Positions 1 to 26,983 of a stretch of 64,000 bases of DNA are shown piece by piece. The stretch comes from Candidatus Gottesmanbacteria bacterium (GTDB lineage Bacteria; Patescibacteriota; Microgenomatia; UBA10105; UBA927), in assembly GCA_963714095.1 (NCBI GenBank), contig OY970230.1, forward strand, positions 198,206-262,205, read 5' to 3'. The translations under genes and the position numbers were made by a program. Within the stretch, counting starts at the first letter, position 1. Each line of letters starts with the position of its first letter. The notes below the pieces were generated by a model. It was given only the letters and a program-made list of their open reading frames with translations. It did not search any database and was not told the origin of the DNA.

Positions 1-605
1 TGATCTATCTCGTCCGTCACGGGGAAACGGAATGGAACGTGAAAAGAGTAATGCAGGGAAAGACAGACATCCGCTTAAACGCTTTAGGACGGAAACAAGC
101 TAGAACTGTAGCAATCACCCTTAAAAATATTCACTTTGATGCATTTTATTCTTCGCCTCTTACCCGCACGATGGAAACAGCAAAAATAATTAACAAATTT
201 CACCATCTATCAATAATTACTGACAGTGATCTGCAGGAAAGAAACTTTGGTAGCCTTGAGGGTAAGTCCTACGAAGAAGTAAATAGGTTTCATCCGGGTC
301 TCATATTTAGTGAAATATGGAATTATCCGAACTTTAGGCCACCGGATGGTGAAAGCGCGTCGGACGTACTCAAACGGGCGAAGCGATTTTCAGTTAAAAT
401 CTTACGGATTCATAAGGGCCAACATGTTCTTGTTGTTTCACACGGAGACGTGCTTCGCTCTATTATCGGATCTTTTATGAACATCCACCCTAAATATTTT
501 TTAGATGTGTATGTAGGAAACACCGGTTTAACCGTACTGGAAACATCAGGCAAAGGTGAACCAACATTACATGTCATGAATTATAAAACTCCAATAAATC
601 ATTAG
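1..605 (+). CDS. histidine phosphatase family protein (phosphoglycerate-mutase-like), 5' end outside window
   Basis: Translation in the track's frame extends to the window edge as LIYLVRHGETEWN, the RHG catalytic-His motif of histidine phosphatases. A later VVSHGDVLRS second-His motif is also present. The track ORF starts internally at 39. Confidence 0.7.
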   Translation, partial: IYLVRHGETEWNVKRVMQGKTDIRLNALGRKQARTVAITLKNIHFDAFYSSPLTRTMETAKIINKFHHLSIITDSDLQERNFGSLEGKSYEEVNRFHPGLIFSEIWNYPNFRPPDGESASDVLKRAKRFSVKILRIHKGQHVLVVSHGDVLRSIIGSFMNIHPKYFLDVYVGNTGLTVLETSGKGEPTLHVMNYKTPINH

Positions 606-1075
606 AGCGTGTAATCTTTGGAGAACTGGCTTTTGGCGCCGGAGGTGTCGGTAAATTCCAGATTCAGCGTTACTTTTGAAACTCCGGGGTCGGGTGTGCA
701 GACATTCCTTGAGCAGGTGCCCAGATAGATTTCCTGGCTGATGGCGTCCTTTCCGGTCACGTCCATCGGCTTACTTCCGCTCGTTACGCCTTTCACAAGC
801 CCGTTACTGTCATAGGTAAGCTCATAGGCAATGCTGGCCATTTTGCTGCCCATTCCCTTCACACTGATGTCGACGGTGTTGGCAGCAGTCGCACTTTTGG
901 TAAAATCAACGCTGATGGACGCGTCAACCGAAGGAACCGGGGTAGTGGTAATATCCGTCGTCGTTTGAGTCGTCGCGGGCGGCGTACCGGAAAAAACCGC
1001 TTTATACACAACAAATCCCGTAACCAAAAGTAAAACTACTAAAACGCTGATAATAATTCTGATCTTTTTGCTCAT
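602..1075 (-). CDS. small membrane-anchored Thr/Pro-rich surface protein (hypothetical)
   Basis: N-terminal hydrophobic helix (IIISVLVVLLLVTGFVVY) followed by the Thr-rich stretch PPATTQTTTDITTTPVPS. Two Cys residues lie in CSRNVC. No recognisable enzyme motif. Confidence 0.4.
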   Translation of the reverse strand: MSKKIRIIISVLVVLLLVTGFVVYKAVFSGTPPATTQTTTDITTTPVPSVDASISVDFTKSATAANTVDISVKGMGSKMASIAYELTYDSNGLVKGVTSGSKPMDVTGKDAISQEIYLGTCSRNVCTPDPGVSKVTLNLEFTDTSGAKSQFSKDYTL

Positions 1076-1084
1076 ATTTCCAGC

Positions 1085-2371
1085 TTACCCGTTTCCCAAT
1101 TTTTCGTCAATATAGGCCGCGAGTTTACTGATATTGACGCGGTCCTGGCGAGTCGTGTCGCGGTCACGCACCGTTACCGTATCATCCTCCAGGGTTGTGT
1201 AGTCGACTGTAATGCACCATGGTGTGCCGGCTTCATCCTGCGCCAGATACCGCTTGCCGATGTTCCCGCGGTCATCCCACGCAGTCAGAAAGCGCGTTTT
1301 GATGCTGTCATAGACAGTTTTAGCCGTACGAACGAGCTCAGGTTTGTTGGCAACCAGCGGGAATACGGCGGCCTTTTTTGGAGCCAACCGCGGATCAAGT
1401 TTCAGGACAATCCGCTTTTCCTCCTGAACATACGCCTCCAGTAGGAAAAACAACGCAGCACGGTCAACGCCTCCGGATGTTTCGATAACCCACGGCGTAT
1501 ATTCTACGCCTGCGATATCATCTCTGTATTTCAGCTTATGATTCCCCAAATCAAAATCGCCGCGGTGATGGATTCCCTCAAATTCGCTCCATCCGAACGG
1601 CGCATTATATTCAATATCCGTTGCGCGCCGTGCATAGTGCGCCCGCTCATCGTCCCGGTGATCCCGAAACCGCAGATGTGAAACATCCATACCCAGTGAC
1701 GTATACCATTTGATACGCGCTTCTTTCCAGTACTCAAACCATTTATCCCCTTCCGTATCGTCGGGTTTGACAAAAAACTCCAACTCCATCTGTTCAAACT
1801 CCCGTGAGCGGAAGGTAAAATTCCCCGGGGTTATTTCATTCCTAAATGCTTTTCCGATTTGGGCAATACCAAAGGGAATTTTTATACGGGTTGAATCAAC
1901 GACATTTCTGAAATTTACGAAAACCCCCTGTGTGATTTCTCCGCGAAGATACACTTTCTCTTTTGGCTCAGTAACACCCAAGTAAACTTCCGTCAGAAGA
2001 TTAAACTGTTTTGGCTGCGTCCATTCTATTTTCTCTTTATGCTCCTTCTGGTGATCTGTAAGGAGCTCCTGTTTATCAGCACGGAACCGCTTATGGCAAA
2101 TTTTACATTCAACTAAGGGATCGGCAAACGCTTTCGTGTGGCCTGAAGCTTCCCAGACGACAGGGTTCATGATGATGGCGGCATCCATGCCCACGACGTC
2201 ATCGCGCAGCTGCACCATCGTGCGCCACCACTCGTTTTTGATATTCTTTTTCAGTTCCACACCTAAGGGGCCGTAATCCCAGAACCCGGTAATGCCTCCG
2301 TAAATCTCACTGCCCGGATAAATAAATCCGCGGCGTTTGGCAAGAGCTACAATGCTGTCCAGACTGGTCAT
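1085..2371 (-). CDS. glyQS: glycine--tRNA ligase (class II, alpha2 type)
   Basis: Full-length 428 aa with conserved GlyQS motifs: N-terminal RRGFIYPGSEIYGG, FWDYGPLG and a class II aaRS core. Confidence 0.9.
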   Translation of the reverse strand: MTSLDSIVALAKRRGFIYPGSEIYGGITGFWDYGPLGVELKKNIKNEWWRTMVQLRDDVVGMDAAIIMNPVVWEASGHTKAFADPLVECKICHKRFRADKQELLTDHQKEHKEKIEWTQPKQFNLLTEVYLGVTEPKEKVYLRGEITQGVFVNFRNVVDSTRIKIPFGIAQIGKAFRNEITPGNFTFRSREFEQMELEFFVKPDDTEGDKWFEYWKEARIKWYTSLGMDVSHLRFRDHRDDERAHYARRATDIEYNAPFGWSEFEGIHHRGDFDLGNHKLKYRDDIAGVEYTPWVIETSGGVDRAALFFLLEAYVQEEKRIVLKLDPRLAPKKAAVFPLVANKPELVRTAKTVYDSIKTRFLTAWDDRGNIGKRYLAQDEAGTPWCITVDYTTLEDDTVTVRDRDTTRQDRVNISKLAAYIDEKLGNG

Positions 2372-2383
2372 AGTGAAATTGTA

Positions 2384-2944
2384 TCAAATGTTGAAGTGGG
2401 ACACCAGCCGCACGGTTTTAAGCCGCCGTTCCAACAACTGTTCAACATAGGAATCCAATGATCCTGTCGGGGGCCTGCGTCCCCGTTCCAAATATCCAAG
2501 CTCGCGAAGGAGGGCCGCGGCAAAACGCTCCCGAAGTACATCAATACGTTCACCTTTCACGGAGGAAAGAGCGGCAAGAGCATCGCAAAGAAGCAAAAAG
2601 ACATCTTCGTGCGCCTGCCCGGCTGGAAGTAATCCGTCAATAAGTTCGCACAGATAATAGGCGGCGCCGATGCGATGAAGATCCGACCGTACTCCTTGGT
2701 ATGAAGCAATCGGCGATACTTCCGTCAGGGTTTCCATCCCGCTTCCTATGTGGATCGTCGCAATAACGCGGTTAAATATCTCAATATGAGGTCCGCGTTT
2801 ACTGGATATTTTGCGTACCCCTTTTGCAAGCCACCGCATTTTGCCGGATTGTCTGGTAAATACCGTCAGAATTCTGTCTGCCTCGCCAACATTGTGTCGT
2901 TTGAGAATAACGCCTTCGACCGTATACACACGCGGAGGCGGCAT
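2384..2944 (-). CDS. recO: DNA repair protein RecO-like
   Basis: N-terminal OB-fold pattern EGVILKRHNVGEADRILTVFTRQSGKM, typical of RecO. It sits immediately upstream of glyQS, as in many bacteria. It is short (186 aa), so it may be a compact RecO. Confidence 0.6.
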   Translation of the reverse strand: MPPPRVYTVEGVILKRHNVGEADRILTVFTRQSGKMRWLAKGVRKISSKRGPHIEIFNRVIATIHIGSGMETLTEVSPIASYQGVRSDLHRIGAAYYLCELIDGLLPAGQAHEDVFLLLCDALAALSSVKGERIDVLRERFAAALLRELGYLERGRRPPTGSLDSYVEQLLERRLKTVRLVSHFNI

Positions 2945-2945
2945 G

Positions 2946-4940
2946 TTAGAAGGTAAATTCTGTATCAGACAGGAGGGTTGTATTCACTTTTTCGTTCCCG
3001 TTTAGCTTCAGTATAAAATTCTGATCAGATGAACCGGACTGGCGCTGGACTAGGAGGTGATATTTTCCGTCAGTTTCTTTGACCGGCGACGAATACGTGA
3101 GTGTCAGTTGCGCAACACCCAACGGGTTCACGGTAAGGAAACCCTGGAACATCGTCTTTCCCAAACTCGACGCGGTGGTCATGGGTGTCGCCTTCCCGTC
3201 TTGCGGTGACTGGGTCCCCTGACTTTGCTTGAGCTGGCTCCCCGCCGGCACATAGATGCGGATCCAATCCCGAAGCGGAGCATTCAGACACAATCCGCCG
3301 CTGGCCAAACCGCAATCGCTGCCCGGATACGGATTTTTGTAGTCAATCGTGAGATTGGTCGTCATCGTGCCATCACCGTTCACCGTTGTATCTTTTGTGA
3401 TCTTTTCCGAAACGAACATATTGGATTTGGCGCCGCCCATGTTCGCTTCGTTAATCGTAAGATAATCCCACCCCTGCCCTTCCTTATACTTCAATATTGC
3501 GGCACTTTCCGATGCTGTCATAATACGTCCGGCCATATTAAAATTCTCTGCGGCTTTTTGGATTGTGGGGTCAGTAAAATACGTCTGTATATGTTTATCC
3601 GTAATCTCTGTCAAGAGCATCTGGAAGAGGTTTCCCCAATATTTTGACGGGGAAACGCCGAGGGCCATTTGTAACATCTGGCGCATCAGCTCACCGATTT
3701 CGCCTTTCCGGTCAGTACGGACATAATTAACCGGCCTCGAAGAATAATCCTCAAGCTCGTAAATCGCCTCAGCACAATTGCAGCGGGGATCAATAGCCGC
3801 ACTAAATACTCTCCCGCTTGCGTTGATGGGGCCCAATATTTTGAGCGCATCTACGAGTACATGCGTATCCATGGTGATAATACCGTCTATGTTGTGTTCT
3901 GTCCCGGACGTATTATCGTACATTGACTGAAATTGCTGCATGGAAATTTTAAAATCCGGTGATAAATTCGAATCCCGGATATTTAAATTGTAAACACCCG
4001 GCAAATACGCAAGAATTTCCGGTGGTGCAGGATATTTTTTGGTAAGCGCTGCATCGAGAGAATAAATATCATCGGATTTCTCCAGAATTGCTTTTCCGCC
4101 GACGAACCGAAACTGCGCATATGATGTCATGAATCCACCTGTCGGCCGCAGCTCCTTGTCATTTTGGAAAATCACCAGGTACCGCTTTTCCGCAGGATAC
4201 CCCAGAATTTTCGGCAGATTAGTAAGGAGGGGCTGGGCGTTCACAAACAAGTTCGCGGCATTTTCTATAACCTCCTTGGCTCCGACCAGCTGAGGCCGTA
4301 TAGAAGTTTTGCCGATGTGATCCGGATAGCGGTTGGGGTCGATATAATCAATTTCTTTCCGTAACGTATCGATACTCGACGCCATGGTGTTGATTTTCGG
4401 AACCAAGGCGTTCATGGTTTTGACTGCAGTCTGGATCCGGTCGTCTGCCGTTCCCGAAACGAAATTACTTTTACCCTTGAGTCCTAAAAGATCAGCGTTC
4501 GGTTCCAAAGCAGCGACAGCCGCGTCCCCCGCATCAAGCCCCGCAAATCCGGCTTTTATGGCATGATCGCCGTCTGAGATATACGCGCCTAAAAACGGAA
4601 CATGTTCCAAAGGAAGTACTTTGTTATATTCGTCTCGAAGTGCAGTCAGGCTCGTCCTCGTTGCCGCGAGCCCTTCTTTGGTTTTGACAATGTCCTGTTT
4701 TTTAATCGCCGCGCCAGTCTCACGAGCGGCGGCAATGACGGCCGGTGCTTTGGAAATCACTCCGCGCAGCGGTAAAAGCATAATGCCGATAATGACAAAA
4801 ATAAGGACAAGGATTCCCAAAGGAATAGCGATAATTTTCCACGGAAATGATTTTTTTGTATGCATAGGTGGCGGTACTATCGGCATCACCCGCGGAGCAG
4901 GTGTCGTCGGTAAATTAATTTTTTTCAGTTCCTCGGGCAT
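2946..4940 (-). CDS. membrane-anchored extracytoplasmic protein, DUF4012-like
   Basis: Pro-rich N-terminus, a single TM (IIAIPLGILVLIFVIIGIMLL), then a large soluble domain. The motif VIFQNDKELRPTGGFMTSYAQ resembles DUF4012 proteins that frequently neighbour sugar-transferase genes. Assignment from memory, not searchable here. Confidence 0.45.
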   Translation of the reverse strand: MPEELKKINLPTTPAPRVMPIVPPPMHTKKSFPWKIIAIPLGILVLIFVIIGIMLLPLRGVISKAPAVIAAARETGAAIKKQDIVKTKEGLAATRTSLTALRDEYNKVLPLEHVPFLGAYISDGDHAIKAGFAGLDAGDAAVAALEPNADLLGLKGKSNFVSGTADDRIQTAVKTMNALVPKINTMASSIDTLRKEIDYIDPNRYPDHIGKTSIRPQLVGAKEVIENAANLFVNAQPLLTNLPKILGYPAEKRYLVIFQNDKELRPTGGFMTSYAQFRFVGGKAILEKSDDIYSLDAALTKKYPAPPEILAYLPGVYNLNIRDSNLSPDFKISMQQFQSMYDNTSGTEHNIDGIITMDTHVLVDALKILGPINASGRVFSAAIDPRCNCAEAIYELEDYSSRPVNYVRTDRKGEIGELMRQMLQMALGVSPSKYWGNLFQMLLTEITDKHIQTYFTDPTIQKAAENFNMAGRIMTASESAAILKYKEGQGWDYLTINEANMGGAKSNMFVSEKITKDTTVNGDGTMTTNLTIDYKNPYPGSDCGLASGGLCLNAPLRDWIRIYVPAGSQLKQSQGTQSPQDGKATPMTTASSLGKTMFQGFLTVNPLGVAQLTLTYSSPVKETDGKYHLLVQRQSGSSDQNFILKLNGNEKVNTTLLSDTEFTF

Positions 4941-4995
4941 GTTCTTTATTGTCTCGTATTTGCCAGGTACTTGTCAATGGACCGCGGACGGAAGA

Positions 4996-5634
4996 CTAGA
5001 CTGCGCCTTTACCGGAGATCATTGCCCACGGACTCCTGAAAAGTATGGCGATATCCATGAGCAGTGACCGTTTTTTTACGTAATCCGCATCCATTTTAAT
5101 CCGTTTATCAAAATTCACCTCGCTTCTCCCCGACACCTGCCAATGCCCGGTAATGCCAGGTTTGGCAGACAGCACAATTTTCACTAAATTTTTGGTATGC
5201 GGGTATTTCCGCTGCTGTTCCACGAGTTCGTCCGGATAATACGGACGGGGTCCCACGAGACTCATGTCTCCGCGGATCACATTCACAAGCTGGGGAATTT
5301 CATCAAGAGAATGTTTCCTTATAAACCGTCCCACCCGAGTGACCCGGGGATCATCCAACAGTTTGTAACTATTCCGTTTATATTCGCTGTACAGTTTTGC
5401 CAACTTAGGATCACTCCGGAGCTGTTCATGGGCATTCACGACCATGGAGCGGAATTTAAAGAGTTTAAAGAGTTTCCCGTTTTTTCCGACCCGCTGGGGA
5501 GTATCGGCAAATACCGGACCTTCACTATCCAAAACAATTGCGACGGCTGTAATAAGGCTGATCGGCAGAAACAAAAGGAATATGAATATGCTTCCCACAA
5601 GATCAATGCATCGTTTAATAAACGTGTATATCAT
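4996..5634 (-). CDS. polyprenyl-phosphate sugar-1-phosphate transferase (small PglC/WbaP-C-terminal type initiating phosphoglycosyl transferase)
   Basis: Single N-terminal membrane helix. Conserved bacterial sugar transferase motifs: [25 protein letters not shown] and [21 protein letters not shown]. Confidence 0.85.
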
Positions 5635-5646
5635 ACGTTGAACCCC

Positions 5647-6729
5647 TCAGGTAAGATGCTCGTTTTGGGTACCCTTTAAACTTTCAACGAGTTTTTTAAT
5701 TTTCGGAACGGAGGATTTGTTGCAGACCAGAATCACATCGTTTGTTGCAACGATAAGGGCATCCTTCACGTCTATCGTCGTCACCAGCTGATCCGTGTAA
5801 TTATAGACCAATGAATCTTCCGTGTCCGTCAGGAGCACTTTTCCCTCCGTTACGTTTTTATCCGCAGCCTCCTCAAGCGCTTCTTTTAATGCTTCCCACG
5901 CCCCGATATCACTCCATCCGATATCCTCAGAAATAACATAGGCAGTAGACGGATTCAGATTTTCCAGAATCAGATTATCAAAACTGTTTTTTTCCAATGT
6001 AGGATAGACGCTGGCAAGCGTTTCCTCGAACCGATCTGTATGCCAGCTCTCGGAAATACGGGAAAGTCCCGCATATATATTCGGTGCAAACTGTTTATAT
6101 TGCGACCATAAAAATTGCGGCGTGGTGACAAAGTATCCTAGATTCCAAGCATGATGATCACTTTCAAAGTACCGTTTCGCTGTTTTTGCGTCAGGCCGGT
6201 ATTGACAGTCAACAAACGAATAAATTGGAATTTCGTTGGCGGTCATCATTCTTTTACCGTACTCAATCCACCCCAAATTTTCACTGGCAAACCGTGGTTT
6301 TTGCGCAACAAACACTATCCTGTTGGAATCTTTTTTTACAATTTCTCCTGCAGCAACAAGAATTTTCCGGAACAGTGCTTCCTTTTTTACCAAATGATCG
6401 CTCCACACAATGACCATAGGCTCCAGAGGAAAATCCCGGACAAGGAGTGACGTAATCAAACCAACCGCAGGCCCGACATCCCGCATCTCCGGCTCGCCTA
6501 TCACGTGATCAGGCGGCAATTCCCCTAATTGTTTTTGGACGATCGCAACATACGGCGCGCCCGTGGAAACATAGATGTCCTTCCATGAAAAGTCCGGCAG
6601 CAATCTGTTGGCTGCCAGCTGCAAGGTTGAGGAACTTCCTATAATTTTTTCAAACTGTTTCGGAGATTTTTTCCGGGAAAGCGGCCATAACCGCGTTCCC
6701 ACTCCTCCTGCAAAAATGACTGCTTTCAT
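5647..6729 (-). CDS. sugar-phosphate nucleotidyltransferase, mannose-1-phosphate guanylyltransferase-like
   Basis: N-terminal IFAGGVGTRLWPLSRKKSPKQF nucleotidyltransferase signature (GGxGTRLxPL). ~360 aa, without a cupin/isomerase domain. Confidence 0.7.
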   Translation of the reverse strand: MKAVIFAGGVGTRLWPLSRKKSPKQFEKIIGSSSTLQLAANRLLPDFSWKDIYVSTGAPYVAIVQKQLGELPPDHVIGEPEMRDVGPAVGLITSLLVRDFPLEPMVIVWSDHLVKKEALFRKILVAAGEIVKKDSNRIVFVAQKPRFASENLGWIEYGKRMMTANEIPIYSFVDCQYRPDAKTAKRYFESDHHAWNLGYFVTTPQFLWSQYKQFAPNIYAGLSRISESWHTDRFEETLASVYPTLEKNSFDNLILENLNPSTAYVISEDIGWSDIGAWEALKEALEEAADKNVTEGKVLLTDTEDSLVYNYTDQLVTTIDVKDALIVATNDVILVCNKSSVPKIKKLVESLKGTQNEHLT

Positions 6730-7817
6730 TGTATTTTTGTGGCGAGTCTTTCAACCGTGACCCGCATTTCTTTTTTAAATCTTTCTATACCAAAACGTTC
6801 TGCGTTAGCTCTGCATGAACCGCTATCATACCACCCTTTGTTAAATATATGCAAAGCGCGGATCAACGATTCTTTTGTCTGTGCATCAAACAAAATTCCT
6901 GTTTTCCCTTCGATCACAGTTTCCGCCATGCCGCTCTGTCGATAACAGATAACCGGCTTACCGCACGATTGTGCTTCAAGAGCGATTAAACCAAAATCCT
7001 CATCGCCTGCGAACACAAAAGCACGGCACCTTTGATAATAGGCAACAAGATCTGCGTCTGTCAAATAACGCGTAATAAAAGTGATATTATTTTTTGCCCT
7101 CCTCTGCAACACCCGATTGCCCAATCCGCTCCCGATAATTATGAGCGGCCAGCCAAGCTCGTTAAACGCATCAATGACGAGATCTATGCGCTTGTATGGG
7201 ACAAAGCGGGATACCAAAAGAAAATAATTTTCCTTATTCTTTGCAATTCTAAATGTATTCGTATCTATCGGAGGATAAATCACCGTATCGACGTTGCGAT
7301 GATAATATTTCTTTATACGATCCGCGACGTGGCTCGAAATAGTAATGTAATAATCAGGCCGGGAAGAGGCAATTAAATCCCACCGCTTCAGGGTTGGTGT
7401 AAACATTTTCAACATACGTGCGGATACATAATCGGCCCGTTCCATATAGGTCGAATTTCCGCTCCATAAATACCGTGTCGGCGTAAGGCAATAGCAAATA
7501 TGGACGGTGCCCGGCTTGGTAATGATGTTTTTGGCTTCGGCAGACGTCACTGATAGAACCACATCGTACGCGTCAAAAGAAAATGACTCAAACGCCATAG
7601 GGGTAAGCCACGGAAACAGTTCGTGATGCCTTTTTGCAAACGGCACATGCTGCAGAAACGAAGTGTGAACGTCAAAAACGTCTGCCCATGACGCACGGCG
7701 CGGATCATAGACTGCGGTAAAAAGAGGCGCGTCCGGCCAAATCTCATGAAGAGCGAGTAAGACTCGTTCCGCCCCGCCCCATTTATTAACCCGGTCGTAC
7801 ACCAGTGCAATTTTCAT
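6726..7817 (-). CDS. glycosyltransferase family 4 (GT-B)
   Basis: N-term MKIALVYDRVNKWGGAERV and C-terminal GLIALEAQSCGKPVICY donor-binding motif. 4-nt overlap with the downstream gene. Confidence 0.8.
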   Translation of the reverse strand: MKIALVYDRVNKWGGAERVLLALHEIWPDAPLFTAVYDPRRASWADVFDVHTSFLQHVPFAKRHHELFPWLTPMAFESFSFDAYDVVLSVTSAEAKNIITKPGTVHICYCLTPTRYLWSGNSTYMERADYVSARMLKMFTPTLKRWDLIASSRPDYYITISSHVADRIKKYYHRNVDTVIYPPIDTNTFRIAKNKENYFLLVSRFVPYKRIDLVIDAFNELGWPLIIIGSGLGNRVLQRRAKNNITFITRYLTDADLVAYYQRCRAFVFAGDEDFGLIALEAQSCGKPVICYRQSGMAETVIEGKTGILFDAQTKESLIRALHIFNKGWYDSGSCRANAERFGIERFKKEMRVTVERLATKIQ

Positions 7818-8271
7818 ATATTTTTAACGTATCACTCGCCATTTTGTGCCAGGAATATTTTTTCACAATACTTGAATCAACTGGTGGTCTTTTTTTTGCT
7901 GCACGGGTCAAAATTTTTGCAAGATCCTCTGCGCTGTGCGGATCAAAATAGATTGCACAGTTCCCGAGTATCTCATGAAACACAGGAATGTCGCTTACTA
8001 TCACGGGACAATTATTTGCAAGAGCTTCAAGGGCCGGAAGACCGAACCCTTCCATAAGCGAAGGAAACACGAGCGCCTGGGCATTTTTATATAACTCTGA
8101 AAGTTCTACGTCGGTTACGGTTTTGGGTTGTACCCCTAATCGTTTATAGAAAAAATCATCGTTCCCGACAAAAACAACCCGTACACCGGCCTTCAATGCA
8201 GCGCGCATAAGTAACTCCACATTCTTATGCGGGTATGCATTCCCCACGTATAAAAAATAGTTATCCTTCAT
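7786..8271 (-). CDS. GT4 C-terminal (donor-binding) domain only; half of a split GT4
   Basis: Begins YFLYVGNAYPHKNVELLMRA, the start of the GT-B C-domain. Contains EGFGLPALEALANNCPVIVSD. 161 aa. Its start overlaps the stop of the N-domain ORF (8261..8782) by 11 nt. Confidence 0.6.
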   Translation of the reverse strand: MKDNYFLYVGNAYPHKNVELLMRAALKAGVRVVFVGNDDFFYKRLGVQPKTVTDVELSELYKNAQALVFPSLMEGFGLPALEALANNCPVIVSDIPVFHEILGNCAIYFDPHSAEDLAKILTRAAKKRPPVDSSIVKKYSWHKMASDTLKIYENCTGVRPG

Positions 8272-8782
8272 AAATAACTTCTATCTGCTCGGACAACACA
8301 TCAAAATGATCAAGAATTTCTTTTTTCGTACTTTCCGAAACGGCAATTATTTTTTCGCTCCAGAAAATTGCTTTTAACAGAGAAATATAATATCCCAGGC
8401 GGCGGATTTTGTAGAAAACATACGACAGCGTCGTTGCTTTTCCTGTGTCAAAATGCAAAATCGTCAGGTCGTGGATGGTCACGATACATTTTCCGAAATA
8501 GAAAAGCGGGACATTAAAATAGGGAACATGCAAAAGATCGAGATGCTCACTGTTAAAAATCGCCGGCATGAACAGCTGTTCAGTGACACTATGCCATGGA
8601 ATGTCCGCTAACCGTTTCGTCCATCTGGCATTAGGCAATGCAAACGAATCAAACGCAGATTTCCGTAAAAAAACCACGTAGGAATTTTTATCATCAATCT
8701 TCCCCAATTCTGCAATAAGATTGCGGACATATCGTCCGACGCCGGTCTCGTTTACAAGACGTGCATCTATGCCTATCTTCAT
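8261..8782 (-). CDS. GT4 N-terminal (acceptor) domain only; half of a split GT4
   Basis: MKIGIDARLVNETGVGRYVRNL N-domain signature. Ends ...EQIEVIYEG immediately after the N-domain terminal motif. 173 aa. Confidence 0.6.
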   Translation of the reverse strand: MKIGIDARLVNETGVGRYVRNLIAELGKIDDKNSYVVFLRKSAFDSFALPNARWTKRLADIPWHSVTEQLFMPAIFNSEHLDLLHVPYFNVPLFYFGKCIVTIHDLTILHFDTGKATTLSYVFYKIRRLGYYISLLKAIFWSEKIIAVSESTKKEILDHFDVLSEQIEVIYEG

Positions 8783-9648
8783 ATAGAAAATTGTTTTAAG
8801 AAAAATAACCGCATCGAATAAAATAGATTAATGACGAGAGATACAACCGGTCCGTATTTTTTCGCATAATGTTTTTTGTAAAACAGCCAGTTATACTCAT
8901 GAAAATAAATCTCGGTTATAACCGCCCGCGAACGAAGAGCACTGCTTCTTCCGCTCTGCTTCTTCTTATGAAGGACTATCGCCTCCGGATTAAACCACAC
9001 TTCCCAACCCTTCTGTTTAAACCGGTACGCCCAATCGATATCCTCAGCATACATAAAATAATCTTCATCAAGGAGACCCACCTCATGTATTGCCTCACTC
9101 CTAGCAAAGAAAAATGCACCGCTCACGCAGTCCACCTGATGGGGAATCGTGATATTTTTGTACCCCATGTGATACTGCCCGAAGATGCGCGACTCTGGGA
9201 ATAATTTTTCAAGACCAATCATATACGTGAAAGCTGCCCACGGCGTCGGGAATCCCCTGTGGCACGCCGGATCCATCTTTCCGTTTGCCAATTCCAGCCG
9301 GCAGGTGGCAGCCCCCGCCTTCAGGTGCCCGTCCATAAACCGCAGCATCGCGCCGATGGAGCCCTCCCGGATCTCCGTATCTGAATTTAACAGTAAAATA
9401 TATTTTCCTTTGGCAATTTTTATCCCTTTGTTATTCGCTTTGGCAAACCCTAAATTCTTCGTGTTCAAAATGAGCCGTATGTCGGGAATCTTTTTGAATA
9501 GTTCCGTGCTTCCGTCGGACGACCCGTTATCTACCACGATAATTTCCAACACTACTCCTTCCGACCACTTCCGTATCGAGTCCAGACATGCCTTCGTCAT
9601 GTCTTTTGTGTTGTAATTGACAATAATAATGGAAAGCTCAGTGTTCAT
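8779..9648 (-). CDS. glycosyltransferase family 2 (GT-A)
   Basis: LSIIIVNYNTKDMTKACLDSI ... VVDNGSSDGS GT2 N-terminal signature. Confidence 0.8.
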   Translation of the reverse strand: MNTELSIIIVNYNTKDMTKACLDSIRKWSEGVVLEIIVVDNGSSDGSTELFKKIPDIRLILNTKNLGFAKANNKGIKIAKGKYILLLNSDTEIREGSIGAMLRFMDGHLKAGAATCRLELANGKMDPACHRGFPTPWAAFTYMIGLEKLFPESRIFGQYHMGYKNITIPHQVDCVSGAFFFARSEAIHEVGLLDEDYFMYAEDIDWAYRFKQKGWEVWFNPEAIVLHKKKQSGRSSALRSRAVITEIYFHEYNWLFYKKHYAKKYGPVVSLVINLFYSMRLFFLKQFSI

Positions 9649-10786
9649 ACGCTTCTATCCAAACTCTGTCCTGTTGTTGGGCTATCCTGTCCCACGAATA
9701 TTCTTTTTCTATAAGCGCACGGGCGTTATGTACGATATCCGCACGCTTTTTTGCGTCACGAAGTTTTACTATCGATTCCAAAATTTCATCAGTAGTATCG
9801 GCAACCAAAAAATGTTTTTCTGCTTCTCCCTGCATCCCCGCGATTCCCAAAGAAGAAGCTACAACCGGCAGTCCTGCTGCCATCGCTTCCAATATTTTAT
9901 ATTTTGTCCCGCCCCCGATACGTATAGGAGCCAGCATAATGTCTGCACCGTTGAGTTCATCCTGAATACTGTCTACGCTGCCGGCATAATACGGACCGCG
10001 CGGAGCATATTTACCCACGATACGAAGCTGAGCGTCGGGGTACACTTTGCCAATCGCTGGCCAAATATCATGGATAATGTACTGGGCTGCGTCCCTGTTT
10101 TCCATCCACCGGAAATTCCCGACATATAAAAATTTTGGATTTTTGGACATTATTTTTTTCGGACGGAATGCAAACGCCTTCGTATCTACGCCGTTGGGCA
10201 CGACGGAAACATTGGGCTGCCCTATATACGACCGGTCACTTTCCGACACGGAAATTATCTTTGTTGCCTTTCTCCACACATGCCGTTCCCACAATTTCAT
10301 TTTTATGACATCGCGTAAAAGCAGCGGCCGCAGTACACCGATTTTAAATTTCCTCACATAGGATTCATACACGGTATGTTCAATGTTATGTTCGGCTACA
10401 ACTATAGGAATACGGTGCTCCGTCGGAATCGAGGGCCATACGTATCCCGGCTCGATATGGATACAATCATAGTTACCCATGGAAATCTCATCAGATAAAA
10501 GCGCAAGCATCTCACTGTTATGATAACTTTGCCATAATAACGGGTATGAACCGATCATGGATTTTAATAGATATTTCGGCTGCCACACGCGTCCGCGGTG
10601 TACCGTTGTGACACTTTTACAAAATGACAATTCCGGCAAGTATTTCTTTTCACTTTCTGACCGGATAAACGAATAAAGATGGATCTCGTGTATTCCCGCG
10701 AGGCGTTTCAGTAAATTATATATGCGGATCTGACCTCCGGAGTACAGCGGGTATGGCAATATTGCTGATACGAATAAAATCTTCAT
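9638..10786 (-). CDS. glycosyltransferase family 4
   Basis: MKILFVSAILPYPLYSGGQIRIYNL N-domain and KYKILEAMAAGLPVVASS C-domain motif. Confidence 0.8.
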   Translation of the reverse strand: MKILFVSAILPYPLYSGGQIRIYNLLKRLAGIHEIHLYSFIRSESEKKYLPELSFCKSVTTVHRGRVWQPKYLLKSMIGSYPLLWQSYHNSEMLALLSDEISMGNYDCIHIEPGYVWPSIPTEHRIPIVVAEHNIEHTVYESYVRKFKIGVLRPLLLRDVIKMKLWERHVWRKATKIISVSESDRSYIGQPNVSVVPNGVDTKAFAFRPKKIMSKNPKFLYVGNFRWMENRDAAQYIIHDIWPAIGKVYPDAQLRIVGKYAPRGPYYAGSVDSIQDELNGADIMLAPIRIGGGTKYKILEAMAAGLPVVASSLGIAGMQGEAEKHFLVADTTDEILESIVKLRDAKKRADIVHNARALIEKEYSWDRIAQQQDRVWIEAYEH

Positions 10787-10790
10787 GAAT

Positions 10791-12236
10791 TTACTTTGCC
10801 GCAGCAGGTGTCGCTTCTTTTGGCTTTGTTAAATCAATGATTGCAAATGTATCGTTCCGTACTAATACCGTGTACTTTGCGGCAAGGTCGCGGGTCTCAG
10901 TATCGGCATCGGTTGGTGACACGGTGACGTATGCAGTTGCTCCCATGGCGATTTTCTTATCGATATCAAACCCCTCGGGCCAACCCTGACGCTGGGTCTG
11001 ATACAAAAATGTCGTGTCTCCGTTATATGGCGCTATCACTTTGGCATCTTTCGGAAGTATAGCGTCGGCGGCTTTCCCCGCCGCAACAATTTCAGGATGA
11101 TTAATCCAATAATATGTCCGTATCGTAAACCATGAAAAACCGAGCGCCGCGGCTATACTTAGAATCGCGACGATAATCCCGGGAATTTTCATTCTGAACA
11201 GTGATACGAAGCCTTTCGCGGTATAAATCGCGACAACCGGAAGAATAAGAATTTGATAATAATCATGCTGGACGTTGCCTGTGGCAAAAATAATAAAATA
11301 CAGAAGAGTTCCGACGGCTAACCATCGGAAAATCCATCCTTCTTTTTTATCCGCAGATGACGCCAGGCCTAAACCGAACGGGATAAGCCCCCAGAATCCG
11401 AGGATAAGATCTCCCAAACGGGTCGCAAAAAGCCAGTGAAACCATGCGCCTTTGAAGCGGATACCGTTGCCGTTTAATAACCATGTACTTGCCGGAATGC
11501 CTTCCGGAAATTGAAGTATCCAGCGGCGCCATAATAAAAGTGGGATCACCGAAATAGTGCCGTACAGAAGGTATTTAAAAAATGTTTGTTTCGAAATACC
11601 AGATTGCCTAAAAATAATATACGGGATGGGAATAAGAAGAAATACCGCCATGGGTTTAGACAACAATGCCAATGCGCCTGCAATAGCGCTGACAATGACC
11701 CAGCGAAAATTTTTCCTCCGCCCGACCAGCCACAAACTCAACACGGACCAGAATACCATCTGCGGATCCGGCAGTATGGTTCTGCCGTAGTACATACTGT
11801 ACGGCAGTACAGCAAAAAGAAATGCAGCAAACAAACCGGTAACAGGGTCAATATATTGGGCTACCAATAGTCCTAAGACAACCGTTGTTCCGGCGGATGC
11901 CGCGATCGTCACGATTCGGAGCCACACTTCAATCGGAATCTTCGGAATACTCAATTTGCCCAATACCGCAATAACCTGATAGATCGGGAATTCCACCATC
12001 CGCCAGCCCTGCGGGTTATCTTTACCGGATTGAATGTTCGAGAGGTCATCATATCTCGGGTGTAGTGGGTCTATCCCGAACCGCAAAAAATTCCGGGCAA
12101 CAGCAGCGGTATCGGCCTGGCGCCAACTATGCCAGTCCGCGACCGGATACGTAATATGGTATAACCGCACACCACAAGCCGCCACGCCAATACAAAACAA
12201 AAGGGGAATAAAATATTTAGCGATAAATTTTCCCAT
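10791..12236 (-). CDS. GT-C fold membrane glycosyltransferase, GT39/ArnT-like
   Basis: Polytopic, about 11 predicted helices. First loop WHSWRQADTAAVARNF...RYDDLS has the acidic DD motif. YSMYYGRTILPDPQMVF resembles the ArnT/PMT family. Confidence 0.6.
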   Translation of the reverse strand: MGKFIAKYFIPLLFCIGVAACGVRLYHITYPVADWHSWRQADTAAVARNFLRFGIDPLHPRYDDLSNIQSGKDNPQGWRMVEFPIYQVIAVLGKLSIPKIPIEVWLRIVTIAASAGTTVVLGLLVAQYIDPVTGLFAAFLFAVLPYSMYYGRTILPDPQMVFWSVLSLWLVGRRKNFRWVIVSAIAGALALLSKPMAVFLLIPIPYIIFRQSGISKQTFFKYLLYGTISVIPLLLWRRWILQFPEGIPASTWLLNGNGIRFKGAWFHWLFATRLGDLILGFWGLIPFGLGLASSADKKEGWIFRWLAVGTLLYFIIFATGNVQHDYYQILILPVVAIYTAKGFVSLFRMKIPGIIVAILSIAAALGFSWFTIRTYYWINHPEIVAAGKAADAILPKDAKVIAPYNGDTTFLYQTQRQGWPEGFDIDKKIAMGATAYVTVSPTDADTETRDLAAKYTVLVRNDTFAIIDLTKPKEATPAAAK

Positions 12237-12239
12237 ACA

Positions 12240-15233
12240 TTATTTTTCGACTTTCATAAGCTGTTTCAACTGATAGTTTTCGAAAATAAATCTCTCCGCT
12301 GCAAACCCTACTTGTACTGGCGTGCTATATGCGGCTTCAGGCGTTGAAACGTTTGTCGTCGTATACCCATATGCATTCAACCGGAAAATATGCCACAAAG
12401 GATCCGCTAACCCTGTCGGGAAAATCCACGCGCGCCCGTACCTGATTGGCGTATTGATAAATATGAAACTGGTATATTGCCGAAGCGGGAAAAATTGCTT
12501 ACTTAAAGCAAGAAGTGTATTCTGGGAAACGGAACTTGCTTTTTTCCAATCAGTACTCAAACGCCCGATTTCCGACACATTCCATACGATAAGTCCTGCG
12601 ATTGCGGCAACGACAACGAATTTCACGGCGGCCTGCCGTGAGCGTTTCCACCATACAGATATCCCCGTACCCAGTGCCACAATAAAAAATCCGCTCGCGG
12701 CAAACACGTACCGTTCACTCATGTTTCCCAACCCGATAAATGCCAAAAGTGCAACGAAGCCGCATAATGCCCAGAAAAACACTGCGCGGTACGCGGCAAC
12801 GCGGCGCCAAACTTTCCATACGCATGCGGCAACGCCACCGATAAGCAATAACCCAGTCCCCACGGCAATCATGCGATGAATCCGCAGATACTCCCGCAGT
12901 ATTCCCCAGGATTCAATGACGCGGGTTCCGAAAAAGGTTGAGACGACATAGCCGACGGTGTTTCCGATAACGTTAAACGGCAACGTCGAGAGTTTGTAGC
13001 CATAATCTCCTGATGGAGGCACAGCACCCGAAGCAGTCCTGACAATCCAATACAGCGGTATTGCTATCAAAGGTAAGAACGTTGTCCAGTGGCGTTTACC
13101 CAGTATTACCCACGCAACGAGACAGTAAATAAGAGGCGCGACGATCATCCCATCATATGAGAGCATAGCGGACACGAGTAAAAGGAGTGACGCACAATAT
13201 ACTACCCATTTACCCCATGTAGGGCGCCGTCCGTACATCACCAAAAGAACGATACTGCCGAACAAACTGGCTGCAGAAAGTAAACTGCTCTGCCCTGAAA
13301 TCCAAAAAACATTTTCGTTGTGTATGGCAAGTGAAGTAAAGAGCAAGGCAAAAACCAGCGCTACCCAACGTTTGACGTCCGTCAGAACCAGCAGAAGATA
13401 CACAAAATACGCGCTTACGGCCAAAAGCAGGTACGACAAGAAGTGATACCCTTCGGGCTTCAGCCAAAACACCGCATACAGGACAAAATACCAAAACTTC
13501 GGTATCGGACGATAAAAAAATCCCTGGGCATTCGTAAAGTACGAAAGCAAACCCGAGAACGGCGTACTGGCTGCCCACCGCAGCCAGGTAAAATCATCCG
13601 CGACGAAATAGTTAGAAATGGAAGAACCGAAAAGCACAATGGCTGCCAGAAATAAATACATGGCATATGCGATATCATGCGTTAATGCGCGCCACATCAG
13701 TCTCATATAATCCGTAAACCGAAATTCAACCGTCGTAAGGAGTGCAAGCGCGACTCCAAGGAGTAACCATAACGTAAAGGCCACCTTCGACGCTTCAAAC
13801 ACGTCAATAAGAATCCCGTTAAATATTAAACCCGTGAGACCTCCGAATACGCCGACAACAAACGCCTTCTGATATCCGACGAGCGTTTCTTTCCGCCTGA
13901 AAAATATAACATAGGCGGCAAGAAGTATCCCTAAAAACGCAACAGTTCCCAATATGCCGGTTTCACCCAGCATCCTGACATAATCGCCGTCGGATGCCAC
14001 TGATAGCGTCGAATAGCCGCTCCCCAACAGGATATTCCGTTTGAAAGCGGTCATTGCTAGAGGCCACTCCCCCTGCAGACGCGTCGTGATGGAAATGTCA
14101 TAAACGAGCGCCTTCTGGATGAGGAAGCTTCCGGAAACCGTAGCGATTTCTCCCGTTCCGCTTTCGAGACTCACGCTGGTGTAAGAAATCGTCTTTACCT
14201 GGCTCGAAGCCGAAGCAGGCGCCTGCGACGCAGGCAAACCGATATATTCACTTCCTGTCGGCAAATTTTCCACAGCCGGAGATGCAGACTGCTGAACAAC
14301 CGCAGTTGTCCCTTCGAGGGACGCAAGTGTCCCGACCGGTTTACCGGTAGACAAATCCACAATGACGTCATTATATCTGAATGTTTTATAAAACCGATCC
14401 GATGCACCATTAAAAAAATTCAGCAGGAAAAAACTGAAGAGTATAACCGGAATGATAAACCATTTCTTTTTATACCAAAAAAGCATCACGCTTATCGCGA
14501 CAAGATACACGAGAAACGACGTCCGTGATTGTGTGAGAAACAGCATGACGAGCGATCCGACGGACACCATGAAAAATATAATTTTCTGCCACAGTTTATT
14601 GGCCGCAAATACAAACGCGGTAAGAATCGGAACGGTGAAAACGACAAATGCAGCAAGATCATAATGTCCTCCAAAGGTTGAAGGGATGCGCGCCGTAGGC
14701 GGAAGACGAAGCGGTATTCCCTTTGCGAACTGCTCGTTCATCGTCAAAAATGCCGGCCAGCCGAAAAATTTTTCACCAAGTCCGTATACGATAATGCCTA
14801 CTGTTGTTCCCACAAGCGTCCAGATGACCGCCGTAACCAACGACTTCTTCCTGGCAACGACGTCAAATGCTATAAAAAACAGCATCATGTATTCTATCCG
14901 CCGGAGCCAATGCAGCAAAACAAGATGGGGGAAATACCCGACAAGCTTTGGACCGATAAAAATCATGGAAAAGACAGCCGAAATAAGGCCGACGCCCCAA
15001 AAAACAAGAATCGGCCATGTAAGCGGCGTTTTCGGAATATGACGCTGCTGTAGGCGCAGCAGAACATACACACCAACTGCAGCCGCAACAAAAAAATCTT
15101 CCAGGCGTATATAAACAAACGTCCGGATAACATTAATAAGCGGCAACTTCGGATAGAGCGGAATAAACGCCAAAAAAAACAATATCGTCAGTCCGCCGAT
15201 GTTACTGGTTAACCAATGCAAGGCCTTCTTCAT
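12240..15233 (-). CDS. large membrane protein: O-antigen ligase/polymerase-like (Wzy_C) N-half fused to GT-C-like C-half
   Basis: N-half has about 12 TM with LFLTQSRTSFLVYLVAISVMLFW, the O-antigen ligase SR motif. C-half has an additional multi-TM domain starting near FVADDFTWLRWAA (DD loop motif as in GT-C enzymes). 997 aa. Confidence 0.5.
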   Translation of the reverse strand: MKKALHWLTSNIGGLTILFFLAFIPLYPKLPLINVIRTFVYIRLEDFFVAAAVGVYVLLRLQQRHIPKTPLTWPILVFWGVGLISAVFSMIFIGPKLVGYFPHLVLLHWLRRIEYMMLFFIAFDVVARKKSLVTAVIWTLVGTTVGIIVYGLGEKFFGWPAFLTMNEQFAKGIPLRLPPTARIPSTFGGHYDLAAFVVFTVPILTAFVFAANKLWQKIIFFMVSVGSLVMLFLTQSRTSFLVYLVAISVMLFWYKKKWFIIPVILFSFFLLNFFNGASDRFYKTFRYNDVIVDLSTGKPVGTLASLEGTTAVVQQSASPAVENLPTGSEYIGLPASQAPASASSQVKTISYTSVSLESGTGEIATVSGSFLIQKALVYDISITTRLQGEWPLAMTAFKRNILLGSGYSTLSVASDGDYVRMLGETGILGTVAFLGILLAAYVIFFRRKETLVGYQKAFVVGVFGGLTGLIFNGILIDVFEASKVAFTLWLLLGVALALLTTVEFRFTDYMRLMWRALTHDIAYAMYLFLAAIVLFGSSISNYFVADDFTWLRWAASTPFSGLLSYFTNAQGFFYRPIPKFWYFVLYAVFWLKPEGYHFLSYLLLAVSAYFVYLLLVLTDVKRWVALVFALLFTSLAIHNENVFWISGQSSLLSAASLFGSIVLLVMYGRRPTWGKWVVYCASLLLLVSAMLSYDGMIVAPLIYCLVAWVILGKRHWTTFLPLIAIPLYWIVRTASGAVPPSGDYGYKLSTLPFNVIGNTVGYVVSTFFGTRVIESWGILREYLRIHRMIAVGTGLLLIGGVAACVWKVWRRVAAYRAVFFWALCGFVALLAFIGLGNMSERYVFAASGFFIVALGTGISVWWKRSRQAAVKFVVVAAIAGLIVWNVSEIGRLSTDWKKASSVSQNTLLALSKQFFPLRQYTSFIFINTPIRYGRAWIFPTGLADPLWHIFRLNAYGYTTTNVSTPEAAYSTPVQVGFAAERFIFENYQLKQLMKVEK

Positions 15234-16071
15234 ATATTGTGACCAAATCCTGCTTTCCGAGGATTTTACCGATACTAATTGAAACGGTCGCCTTAACCGT
15301 CAACATAAATTTTAACACAGATACCTCCTGCGGTGTTTTGTGCTTCCGATAAAAATACAGAAGCCCGCGGAATATATTTGCCACTGGCGCCCGCTTATTG
15401 CCGCTGGAAGCGGCACCGGTATGAATAAAGCGCGCGTCAGGAGTAAAAAAGACGGAATATCCTTTTCGAGCCGCACGATAGAGAAATTCTATCTCATCCA
15501 TATACATAAATATCCCCTGATCGAATAACCCCACATCATAAAAAGAGTCCCTAGTGCCGAGTAAACATGCTCCTGACACCCAACCAACACGCCTCGTATG
15601 GTCCGGCGAATACCGGGTTATCGATATCTTATCTCCGCGGCAAAACAACATGAGAAATATATACCAAAGGGAAAACTCGGGCCCGCAGGACGGCTGAAGC
15701 GATCCATCCTCGTTGTAGAGTTTTCCTCCGACGAAAGATTTAGGATGTGCCAGAGCAAATTCATATAATTTTTCAAAAGCACCATTGAGCGCATCGATAT
15801 CGGAATTGAGCATAAGAACATAGGTCCCCTTCGCAATATGAAGACCCATGTTATTGGCGGTACCATAACCTACATTTTCCTTATTGAGTATTTTTATTAC
15901 CTGAGGAAATTGTGTATTCAACATCGCAACAGAACCGTCACGGGACGCATTATCGACAACAATGATTTCATATGTCAACTTGGAATGTTTAAGAGTCTCA
16001 ACGATTGACCGCAGACACCGCCCCGTCAAGTGTTTAGTGTTAAAACTGGGGATAATAATTGATAGATCCAT
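15202..16071 (-). CDS. glycosyltransferase family 2
   Basis: LSIIIPSFNTKHLTGRCLRSI ... IIVVDNASRDGS. Confidence 0.8.
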   Translation of the reverse strand: MDLSIIIPSFNTKHLTGRCLRSIVETLKHSKLTYEIIVVDNASRDGSVAMLNTQFPQVIKILNKENVGYGTANNMGLHIAKGTYVLMLNSDIDALNGAFEKLYEFALAHPKSFVGGKLYNEDGSLQPSCGPEFSLWYIFLMLFCRGDKISITRYSPDHTRRVGWVSGACLLGTRDSFYDVGLFDQGIFMYMDEIEFLYRAARKGYSVFFTPDARFIHTGAASSGNKRAPVANIFRGLLYFYRKHKTPQEVSVLKFMLTVKATVSISIGKILGKQDLVTIYEEGLALVNQ

Positions 16072-16074
16072 ACG

Positions 16075-16638
16075 TCACTGGAAGAGCCTCGAAAACTTCA
16101 GCGTATAGTGAAGATTTTTCGACCGGTCTCGGATATGGCTAGCCGGGACCCCCCCGACCACTTCGTAGTCTCCCACGTCTTTGGTGACGACTGCCCCGGA
16201 TGCTATGACTGCCCCGCGTCCTACATGGACACCGGGTAAAATCGTAACTCTCGTTCCTATGACTGCATAATCATCGATAACAACCGGCGCCGCGACTTCG
16301 ACAAAATCCGGGCTATCTATATCATGCTCCATGGTGTAAATGCGTACTTCACCGGCAATCGACACATTATTGCCTATTTTTAATGGGTGTCCATTCGATT
16401 TTAGATAGGTAACGAAATTTTTCATCCGGCCGTCTAAAAATGCATCATTACCTATCACGGTATTGTGCCCTATCGCGACACCCGCCGGCTGATTAAACTC
16501 CGCACGCCAGTGAATAGAAGAGTCCTTTCCGATTTTAATCCGGAAGAGTGTCCGGTAAAGAAATAAACGAATCGTATGACTCGGAATATAGCCGGTAAGC
16601 GTACAAAGATATACCCAAAAATCTATGAGTGCCCTCAT
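16075..16638 (-). CDS. hexapeptide-repeat (LbH) sugar O-acetyltransferase
   Basis: Hexapeptide repeats: IGNNVSIAGEVRIY ... VTILPGVHVGRGAVIASGAVVTKDV. Start trimmed to MRALIDF. That ATG overlaps the upstream GT4 stop (ATGA at 16635-16638). Confidence 0.75.
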   Translation of the reverse strand: MRALIDFWVYLCTLTGYIPSHTIRLFLYRTLFRIKIGKDSSIHWRAEFNQPAGVAIGHNTVIGNDAFLDGRMKNFVTYLKSNGHPLKIGNNVSIAGEVRIYTMEHDIDSPDFVEVAAPVVIDDYAVIGTRVTILPGVHVGRGAVIASGAVVTKDVGDYEVVGGVPASHIRDRSKNLHYTLKFSRLFQ

Positions 16639-18325: not shown

Positions 18326-18326
18326 C

Positions 18327-20910: not shown

Positions 20911-20914
20911 TCCT

Positions 20915-22077: not shown

Positions 22078-22081
22078 GCAT

Positions 22082-22792: not shown

Positions 22793-22813
22793 ATAAGTAT
22801 TTAATATTCACGG

Positions 22814-25096: not shown

Positions 25097-25120
25097 AATG
25101 AATTATTTTAAAACATACCC

Positions 25121-26980: not shown

Positions 26981-26983
26981 ATG

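Follow-up and report, generated by a model that had tools for sequence, protein, structure and literature searches.

Does a glycosyltransferase gene that has come apart between its two domains specify a broken protein, or an enzyme made of two chains? The question is raised by a stretch of 64,000 nucleotides from Candidatus Gottesmanbacteria bacterium (contig OY970230.1, positions 198,206 to 262,205), referred to in its full length as the window, in which a family 4 glycosyltransferase (GT4) is divided at its inter-domain linker into two overlapping open reading frames (ORFs). The upstream ORF corresponds to the N-terminal domain and is here called the N-half; the downstream ORF corresponds to the C-terminal domain and is called the C-half. 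As argued below from comparative sequence analysis, the pair probably gives rise to a functional GT4 enzyme of the GT-B fold, its two genes being translationally coupled and its two products held together as a non-covalent heterodimer.

A GT4 glycosyltransferase in two overlapping reading frames

The division of this GT4 into overlapping N-domain and C-domain ORFs had been pointed out in an earlier note on the same DNA, and the ORFs together with their Pfam matches bear out the boundaries and termini given there. The features of the pair are as follows.

8261..8782, minus strand: N-half gene, a stand-alone GT4 N-terminal (acceptor-side) Rossmann-like domain of 173 residues, from the ORF and its Pfam match
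7786..8271, minus strand: C-half gene, a stand-alone GT4 C-terminal (nucleotide-sugar-side) domain of 161 residues, from the ORF and its Pfam matches
8261..8271, minus strand: 11-nucleotide stop/start overlap ATGAAGGATAA, with the C-half ATG at 8271..8269 and the N-half TAA at 8263..8261
8264..8272, minus strand: dual-coding codons TAT-GAA-GGA (Tyr171-Glu172-Gly173 of the N-half), containing ATG-AAG-GA of the C-half
8729..8746, minus strand: glycine-rich loop TGVGRY of the N-half, from invariant alignment columns
8026..8052, minus strand: EGFGLPALE, the E-x7-E motif of the C-half (GT4 donor-site signature)
7810..7857, minus strand: predicted C-terminal helix of the C-half (YSWHKMASDTLKIYEN), helix 314-329 of a model of the concatenated halves

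The N-half, which ends in ...EQIEVIYEG-TAA, has PF13439 (Glyco_transf_4) as its sole Pfam match (1.2e-10, profile positions 3-165 of 170), and the C-half, which begins MKDNYFLYVGN, matches PF00534 (Glycos_transf_1; 4.3e-22, from profile position 14) and also PF13692. The predicted products would accordingly carry the terminal peptides (M)KDNYFLYVGNAYPHK at the N-terminus of the C-half and ...QIEVIYEG at the C-terminus of the N-half. Both domains retain their signatures. Among the 120 best matches to the N-half (protein clusters of 46-100% identity, to which all statements on its homologs refer), G[VI]GRY and T[IV]HD are both kept in 119, and EG[FL][GA]x4E is likewise kept in 119 of 120 C-half homologs. 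No specific enzyme name can be assigned to the pair, as a phmmer search of the N-half against PDB sequences returned no match, and an NCBIfam scan gave no match for the N-half and only sub-threshold matches for the C-half. With regard to membership in CAZy family GT4 and the GT-B fold, both domain types and the E-x7-E motif are present, and what is absent is a single polypeptide bearing both domains with a linker, given that the two ORFs lie in different frames and the linker is missing. Judged by sequence and domain folds, the split pair is a GT4 enzyme whose one clear departure from the family is that it is not one chain.

The junction of the pair reads GTTATTTATGAAGGATAA. As the earlier note had it, the C-half ATG begins 8 nucleotides ahead of the N-half TAA, which makes an overlap of 11 nucleotides when the stop is counted. 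Relative to the N frame the C frame is shifted by +1, and upstream of this ATG it stays open for just 9 nucleotides, which leaves the ATG as the sole possible start of the C-half. The inter-domain linker is indeed missing: where 14-45 residues separate YEG from YFLYVGN in fused orthologs, there is here only K-D-N, such that the K-D preceding the first strand of the C-domain has been retained and the rest of the linker is gone.

The same arrangement extends well beyond the window. Scans of GTDB genomes and JGI metagenomes yielded 161 loci, comprising 139 fused genes (340-426 residues), 18 split pairs and four loci cut by contig ends, and eight further split loci added by look-ups brought those examined as DNA to 26. 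In all 26 the C-half lies directly after the N-half, never with a gap, and in 25 the overlap is 4, 11 or 14 nucleotides long; in the remaining locus (L132) it is 8 or 29 nucleotides, depending on the ATG chosen. The 11-nucleotide geometry of the window, termed type A, is common to 14 other loci with this junction. A start codon only a few nucleotides from the upstream stop, or overlapping it, which is one feature of translationally coupled gene pairs, is thus found at the split GT4 junctions.

At the protein level, 72 of the 120 best N-half homologs are shorter than 200 residues, end in [YH]EG and match PF13439 only, and a further 25 of the same length and Pfam content end in [YH]E[AS][AP], which puts about 97 of the 120 clusters into one or the other of two junction types; the few longer sequences among them are contig-truncated fused forms. 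The closest clusters, about 70 from Gottesmanbacteria and other Patescibacteria at 64-87% identity, all end in YEG-stop and are paired with C-halves of the form MKD-YFLYVGN. A search with the C-half found homologs that are stand-alone ORFs of 152-205 residues, and in 40 pairs of N- and C-halves, matched by equal size of the source contig rather than by record, the junction types of the two halves agree. With the same split architecture recurring in about 100 homologous protein clusters, the pair is not a chance pattern of ORFs. Proteins identical to those of the window are encoded on an NCBI contig of 1,088,247 bp, and again in a Logan assembly of run ERR11571142 that is independent of it. None of the split loci contains further stops; an apparent break in the C-half of L016 was considered as a second lesion and discarded, being a masked run of N.

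Two irregularities of the database records may be mentioned here. The ENA assembly of a close strain carries, on a contig of 552,456 bp, a near-identical N-half (P0067) that runs out of frame after about residue 118, probably through an indel error in that assembly, and this same sequence oddly serves as the 50%-cluster representative of the N-half family. In addition, GTDB records with this Patescibacteria-type operon (L005, L008-L010, L013, L016 and others) are often titled “uncultured Gammaproteobacteria bacterium” (third party annotation, TPA, assemblies), titles that look like mislabels.

Selection on the two halves and on their shared codons

Substitution patterns show purifying selection on both halves. 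Across 13 type A loci, the Nei-Gojobori ratio of nonsynonymous to synonymous substitution rates (dN/dS) is approximately 0.05-0.14 for the N-half and 0.07-0.26 for the C-half, and in six loci of a second junction type (type B, described below) the corresponding ratio of proportions (pN/pS) is 0.20-0.37 for both halves. The C-domain also evolves faster than the N-domain to a similar degree in either gene form, with a dN 1.77 times that of the N-domain in split loci and 1.65 times in fused orthologs, which indicates that neither half has been relaxed following fission.

The overlap itself is under an additional constraint. The codons TAT-GAA-GGA are invariant in all 13 type A loci, whereas other conserved codons of the same loci vary synonymously (seven of eight Tyr, five of five Glu and four of four Gly codons). 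In type B, TAT is kept in six of six loci. The sole member of the type A clade with TAC at this position, L005, possesses a new ATG 10 nucleotides downstream, which forms an ATGA overlap in another frame relation. The position of the N-half stop is likewise fixed while its codon varies (TAA, TAG and TGA all occur in type A, TGA and TAA in type B), with the residue encoded in the C frame changing accordingly. Together, across these loci, the frozen codons, the replacement ATG of L005 and the fixed stop position show that both frames of the overlap are translated, with the ATG in use as a start, and that the overlap is kept tight. This dual-coding freeze constitutes the most direct evidence of selection after the split, and speaks for both products being made.

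Recurrent fission at the inter-domain linker

Fused orthologs of the pair occur in metagenome-assembled genomes of Gottesmanbacteria, Levybacteria, Woesebacteria and other Patescibacteria (for example L007, L008, L013 and L089) as one ORF of 340-426 residues, with an N-domain 44-68% identical to the N-half of the window. The earlier note had named orthologs that are all single intact ORFs as the finding that would speak for a broken gene; single-ORF orthologs were found only at 68% identity or below. These proteins follow the layout V-T-Y-E-G-[V/I]-D, then 14-45 low-complexity and hypervariable residues, then [K/E]-D-P-Y-F-L-Y-V-G-N. They share the motifs of the split pair and its slot between a GT2 and a GT4 gene: the GT2 gene lies upstream in 14 of 15 split and 82 of 116 fused loci, and the GT4 gene downstream in 8 of 10 split and 76 of 109 fused loci. 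Owing to these common flanking genes, the fused and split forms can be regarded as positional orthologs. Moreover, TAT-GAR, which holds a latent ATG in the +1 frame, is already present in 79 of the 110 fused orthologs with YE[GAS]; the +1-frame ATG therefore predates fission.

The split loci fall into five junction types, written here as the end of the N-half followed by the start of the C-half.

Type A (the type of the window): VIYEG-stop / MKD[NKSD]YFLYVGN, 11-nucleotide overlap, with L005 as a variant
Type B: VTYE[AS][AP]-stop / MK[LQ]P[ED]KYFLYVGN, 14-nucleotide overlap
Type C (L132): ...YESGELENV-stop / MSKKPYLLYVGN, start ambiguous, 8- or 29-nucleotide overlap
Type D (L162): VEVTYEG-stop / MKVDYFVYTGN, 11-nucleotide overlap, with GGAGG 6 nucleotides upstream
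Type E (L163-L165): VTYESN-stop / MSQINIKKPYLLYVGN, 14-nucleotide overlap, in a different genomic neighborhood

In a neighbor-joining tree of 147 joined N- and C-domain sequences, types A and B are each monophyletic in 54 of 60 bootstrap replicates, while the groupings A+B, A+C and B+C occur in none of the 60, and in a set of 257 sequences types C, D and E each have only fused proteins as their closest relatives. From this phylogeny it is concluded that at least five independent fissions (types A to E) have taken place, all at the same inter-domain linker. An alternative history, with one ancient fission and many later re-fusions, was weighed and set aside as unparsimonious: there are 139 fused loci against 18 split ones, no bootstrap replicate groups the split types with one another, types C, D and E have fused neighbors, and the linker remnants at the junctions are not alike. 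In this last respect, some type B C-halves retain a remnant of 10-17 residues. The sequences of the junctions make it certain that in four of the five types the C-half starts at the ATG latent in the Tyr-Glu codons; type C also has the ATG of TATGAA, but there another ATG, closer to the stop, could equally be the start. The type E pair sits by rpsF-ssb-rpsR and a methyltransferase gene, outside any glycan operon, with a LAGLIDADG homing-endonuclease ORF directly downstream (L163-L165, 3806-4298, minus strand).

A plausible origin of the type A junction can be proposed on this basis. An ancestral single-chain enzyme of about 360 residues would have lost its hypervariable inter-domain linker by an out-of-frame deletion, which would have placed a stop directly after the conserved Tyr-Glu-Gly and, in the same step, have brought the ATG hidden in the Tyr-Glu codons (tATGaa) into frame with the C-domain. 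A putative microhomology, AAGG in tat-gAA-GGn and again in AAG-GAt, would give exactly the type A junction if the deletion ran from one copy to the other. Type B could instead derive from an ancestor reading YEAAD... through a single-base insertion creating TGA. The frameshift or deletion that the earlier note had offered as one of two alternatives is probably right in kind, as an out-of-frame deletion of the linker, but is old and not recent.

A proposed two-chain enzyme

Once the N-half has been translated, ribosomes would stop 8 nucleotides past the C-half ATG, and termination-coupled initiation there would supply the C-half in similar amounts. The two Rossmann-like domains would then come together without a covalent link and enclose the catalytic cleft. 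In single-chain GT-B enzymes the C-terminal helix packs back onto the N-domain. By analogy with this general architecture, the corresponding helix of the C-half may form a contact between the subunits and probably clamps onto the N-half. The activity of the assembled enzyme is likely, to judge from its family and gene neighborhood, to be a retaining transfer of a hexosyl (possibly mannosyl) residue to a lipid-linked glycan. The folds of the two domains are well supported by an AlphaFold model in which the halves were directly concatenated, with an unpaired block alignment and no linker: its mean predicted local distance difference test score (pLDDT) is 90.3, and each half forms a confident Rossmann-like (beta/alpha) domain. 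The best Foldseek matches are the retaining GT4 enzymes MshA (3c48), BshA (5d00), PglA (8dqd), PimA (2gej) and WaaG (2iv7), with a probability of 1.0 over both domains. When the concatenated halves were modeled without an alignment, the result was useless (pLDDT 38.9).

Several points weigh against the proposal of a coupled, two-chain enzyme. The concatenated model has a predicted template modeling score (pTM) of only 0.64 and, against solved GT4 enzymes, template modeling (TM) scores of 0.35-0.42 with root mean square deviations of 13-18 Å, such that the relative arrangement of the domains is unsupported by it; with its unpaired alignment and no linker, the model is in any case no test of a heterodimer. 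The dN/dS values are approximate, as dS is about 1-2 or undefined and synonymous sites are saturated, and the trees were built by neighbor joining on corrected p-distances, not by maximum likelihood. A Shine-Dalgarno-like GAGG or AAGG 6 nucleotides upstream of the C-half ATG is found in only about half of the type A loci, and in the window itself the signal is weak (GAAG). Given that this signal is not conserved, it was rejected as the main driver of C-half initiation, and initiation coupled to termination would be favored. Finally, the donor sugar is guessed solely from a neighboring ManC-like gene, and the pair belongs to an uncultivated lineage and is known here from its sequence.

Among the other explanations, the one that survives best, improbable as it appears, is that the halves do not reassemble and instead serve separate roles, such as sugar-nucleotide binding, acceptor binding or scaffolding, or join other partners. 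That GT4 N-domains can persist alone is evident from a second, conserved N-domain ORF of the window (17765..18325), which lacks an adjacent free C-domain. Against separate roles, the halves are adjacent and overlapping in all 26 loci, their relative rates of change match those of fused orthologs, and both domains keep their catalytic and substrate-side motifs. The active site of a GT-B enzyme requires both of its domains.

Less probable still is a programmed +1 ribosomal frameshift, as in prfB, which would yield a single-chain GT4 without a linker and make the two ORFs an artifact of annotation. The C frame is indeed +1 in all types other than the L005 variant, the shift window would adjoin the stop codon, and some type B loci end in CCC before TGA, a sequence that is shift-prone in principle. 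By codon-anticodon rules, however, the GGA-TAA of type A should offer no +1 re-pairing, and a conserved slippery site is absent, with the last sense codons differing by type (GGA, GCC, CCC, GTC, AAT). L005 has its own frame relation and a classic ATGA overlap, and every locus has an ATG at the start of the C frame, the T of which is frozen, although recoding would not need it. The concatenated chain without a linker also did not model as a canonical GT-B enzyme. The weakest explanation, and one that can hardly be credited, is that of the recent pseudogene or the 1-2 nucleotide assembly error that the earlier note had entertained, in which a small indel or recent deletion broke a single-chain GT4 and left its ORFs to decay: single-ORF orthologs at the same operon position, the deleted linker with frames one base apart and the demonstrable indel in P0067 would be in keeping with it, but the junction is identical in the second assembly and alike in the roughly 70 closest clusters and so is not private to one genome, dN/dS is far below 1 without extra relaxation relative to fused orthologs, the motifs and overlap codons are preserved, and no split locus bears further lesions.

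The two-chain enzyme thus remains the preferred reading, and of the options in the earlier note it is the natural two-subunit glycosyltransferase with translational coupling that has gained: deep conservation, selection on both halves, the frozen overlap with its fixed stop and recurrent fission all argue for it, with coupling and association of the subunits as its predicted parts. GT4 enzymes are retaining, while those of the Alg14/Alg13 type are inverting. The pair resembles Alg14/Alg13, a eukaryotic UDP-GlcNAc transferase, and the bacterial and archaeal EpsE/EpsF in being a GT-B enzyme of two polypeptides cut between its Rossmann-like domains, and it resembles prokaryotic split MurG-like pairs, which act on lipid-linked glycans, in having adjacent genes in N-then-C order. 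Those systems, however, belong to the MurG-like family (PF08660, PF04101), and neither the Alg14 family PF08660 nor Glyco_tran_28_C (PF04101) matches the split halves at E <= 0.01, where only GT4-type families are found; the likeness to Alg13/Alg14 drawn in the earlier note therefore holds as an analogy and not as family membership. A second difference lies in history. The MurG-like split has been traced essentially to one ancient event, with re-fusions afterwards (PMC8993221, PMC4973528), whereas a single GT4 ortholog group shows at least five independent fissions of more recent date, with fused orthologs still abundant. Relative to the single-chain enzymes MshA, BshA, PglA, PimA and WaaG, the pair has the same domain folds, Pfam families and E-x7-E motif, but those are one chain with a covalent linker, they are only 14-20% identical, and the domain orientation of the model is unlike theirs.

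Non-covalent assembly has precedents. The GT-B enzyme UGT74B1, when cut in its linker and co-expressed as N and C domains, self-assembles into an active dimer (PMC10937113), and the natural MurG-like pairs Alg14/Alg13 and EpsE/EpsF work as two chains (PMC8993221, PMC4973528), which together make such an assembly plausible here. The UGT74B1 construct shares with the GT4 pair the position of its cut, but it was engineered from a plant enzyme of the GT1 family and is encoded on two plasmids, and is not a natural, selected and overlapping gene pair. Within the searchable literature, natural two-chain GT-B enzymes are so far confined to the MurG-like Alg14/Alg13 and EpsE/EpsF lineage, and no description of a natural split GT4 was found. 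The main interest of the locus lies in the replicated fission at one site via a pre-existing latent start codon, together with the dual-coding evidence.

The remaining genes of the operon provide the context for the proposed activity.

10791..12236, minus strand: PMT_2/GT-C-like membrane glycosyltransferase
9638..10786, minus strand: GT4 gene
8779..9648, minus strand: GT2 gene, upstream of the pair, with a 4-nucleotide ATGA overlap with the N-half
6726..7817, minus strand: full-length GT4 gene, downstream of the pair, with a 32-nucleotide overlap with the C-half and its start ATG inside TATGAA
5647..6729, minus strand: mannose-1-phosphate guanylyltransferase-like (ManC-like) gene (NCBIfam TIGR01479, 5.7e-63, below the curated cut-off)
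4996..5634, minus strand: polyprenyl-phosphate glycosylphosphotransferase (NCBIfam TIGR03025, 3.3e-73, below the curated cut-off)

This gene content suggests that the operon directs the assembly of a polyprenol-linked glycan, and the ManC-like gene hints, weakly, at GDP-mannose as a possible donor. Overlaps occur at five of the seven gene junctions of the operon (11, 4, 11, 32 and 4 nucleotides), and the 11-nucleotide overlap of the split GT4 is therefore ordinary for real gene boundaries there. At three consecutive junctions (9638..9648, 8261..8271 and 7786..7817, minus strand) the downstream ATG lies inside TATGAA, formed by Tyr-Glu codons of the upstream gene. Elsewhere, an Rfam scan of the whole window (1..64000) found no family at gathering score, and the G+C content of 32001..44000 is 0.37-0.39, compared with 0.43-0.48 in most of the remaining window.

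Two further genes of the window bear on GT4 half-domains in general.

17765..18325, minus strand: second stand-alone GT4 N-domain ORF, 186 residues as listed and probably 182 from Met5, matching PF13439 at positions 3-166 of 170
16635..17768, minus strand: complete GT4 of 377 residues, with a 4-nucleotide ATGA overlap with the orphan N-domain ORF

The orphan ORF ends VIYPGFSL-stop, at the same domain boundary as the N-half. Among the best 120 of 854 homologs at E < 1e-3, all 120 are 171-198 residues long and match PF13439 only; by this measure, an orphan N-domain without an adjacent free C-domain is widely conserved in Gottesmanbacteria. In two related loci, L168 (3001-5079) and L169 (3001-4767; GCA_000998925.1), two ORFs are called for the GT4 that follows the orphan N-domain, with an N-part of 236-302 residues and a C-domain of 165-202 residues; L166 has an intact GT4 of 374 residues at that place. 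Fission may on this evidence affect a second GT4 ortholog group, and, with the orphan N-domain and the split downstream GT4 of its relatives, free GT4 half-domains seem to be recurring in the lineage. It is a speculative and rather unlikely extension that such half-domains are exchangeable modules, one C-half pairing with more than one N-domain (for example the N-half described here and that of 17765..18325), or that fission loosens domain closure. Were either true, a minimal genome would draw several glycosyltransferase specificities, or broader ones, from a smaller number of residues, and repeated fission at the same linker would be adaptive and not merely tolerated.

Together, the split loci amount to a natural replicated experiment, in which GT4 enzymes tolerate a cut of the backbone at the inter-domain linker and selection keeps both pieces. 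They also point to a repeatable route of fission: because the conserved TAT-GAR already holds an out-of-frame ATG, any frameshifting indel in the dispensable linker would yield a stop and a ready overlapping start at once. In the annotation of Patescibacteria genomes, such halves should accordingly not be called pseudogenes or “partial” proteins, and the natural cut sites, along with the 40 pairs of N- and C-halves, could be of use in designing split or mix-and-match glycosyltransferases.

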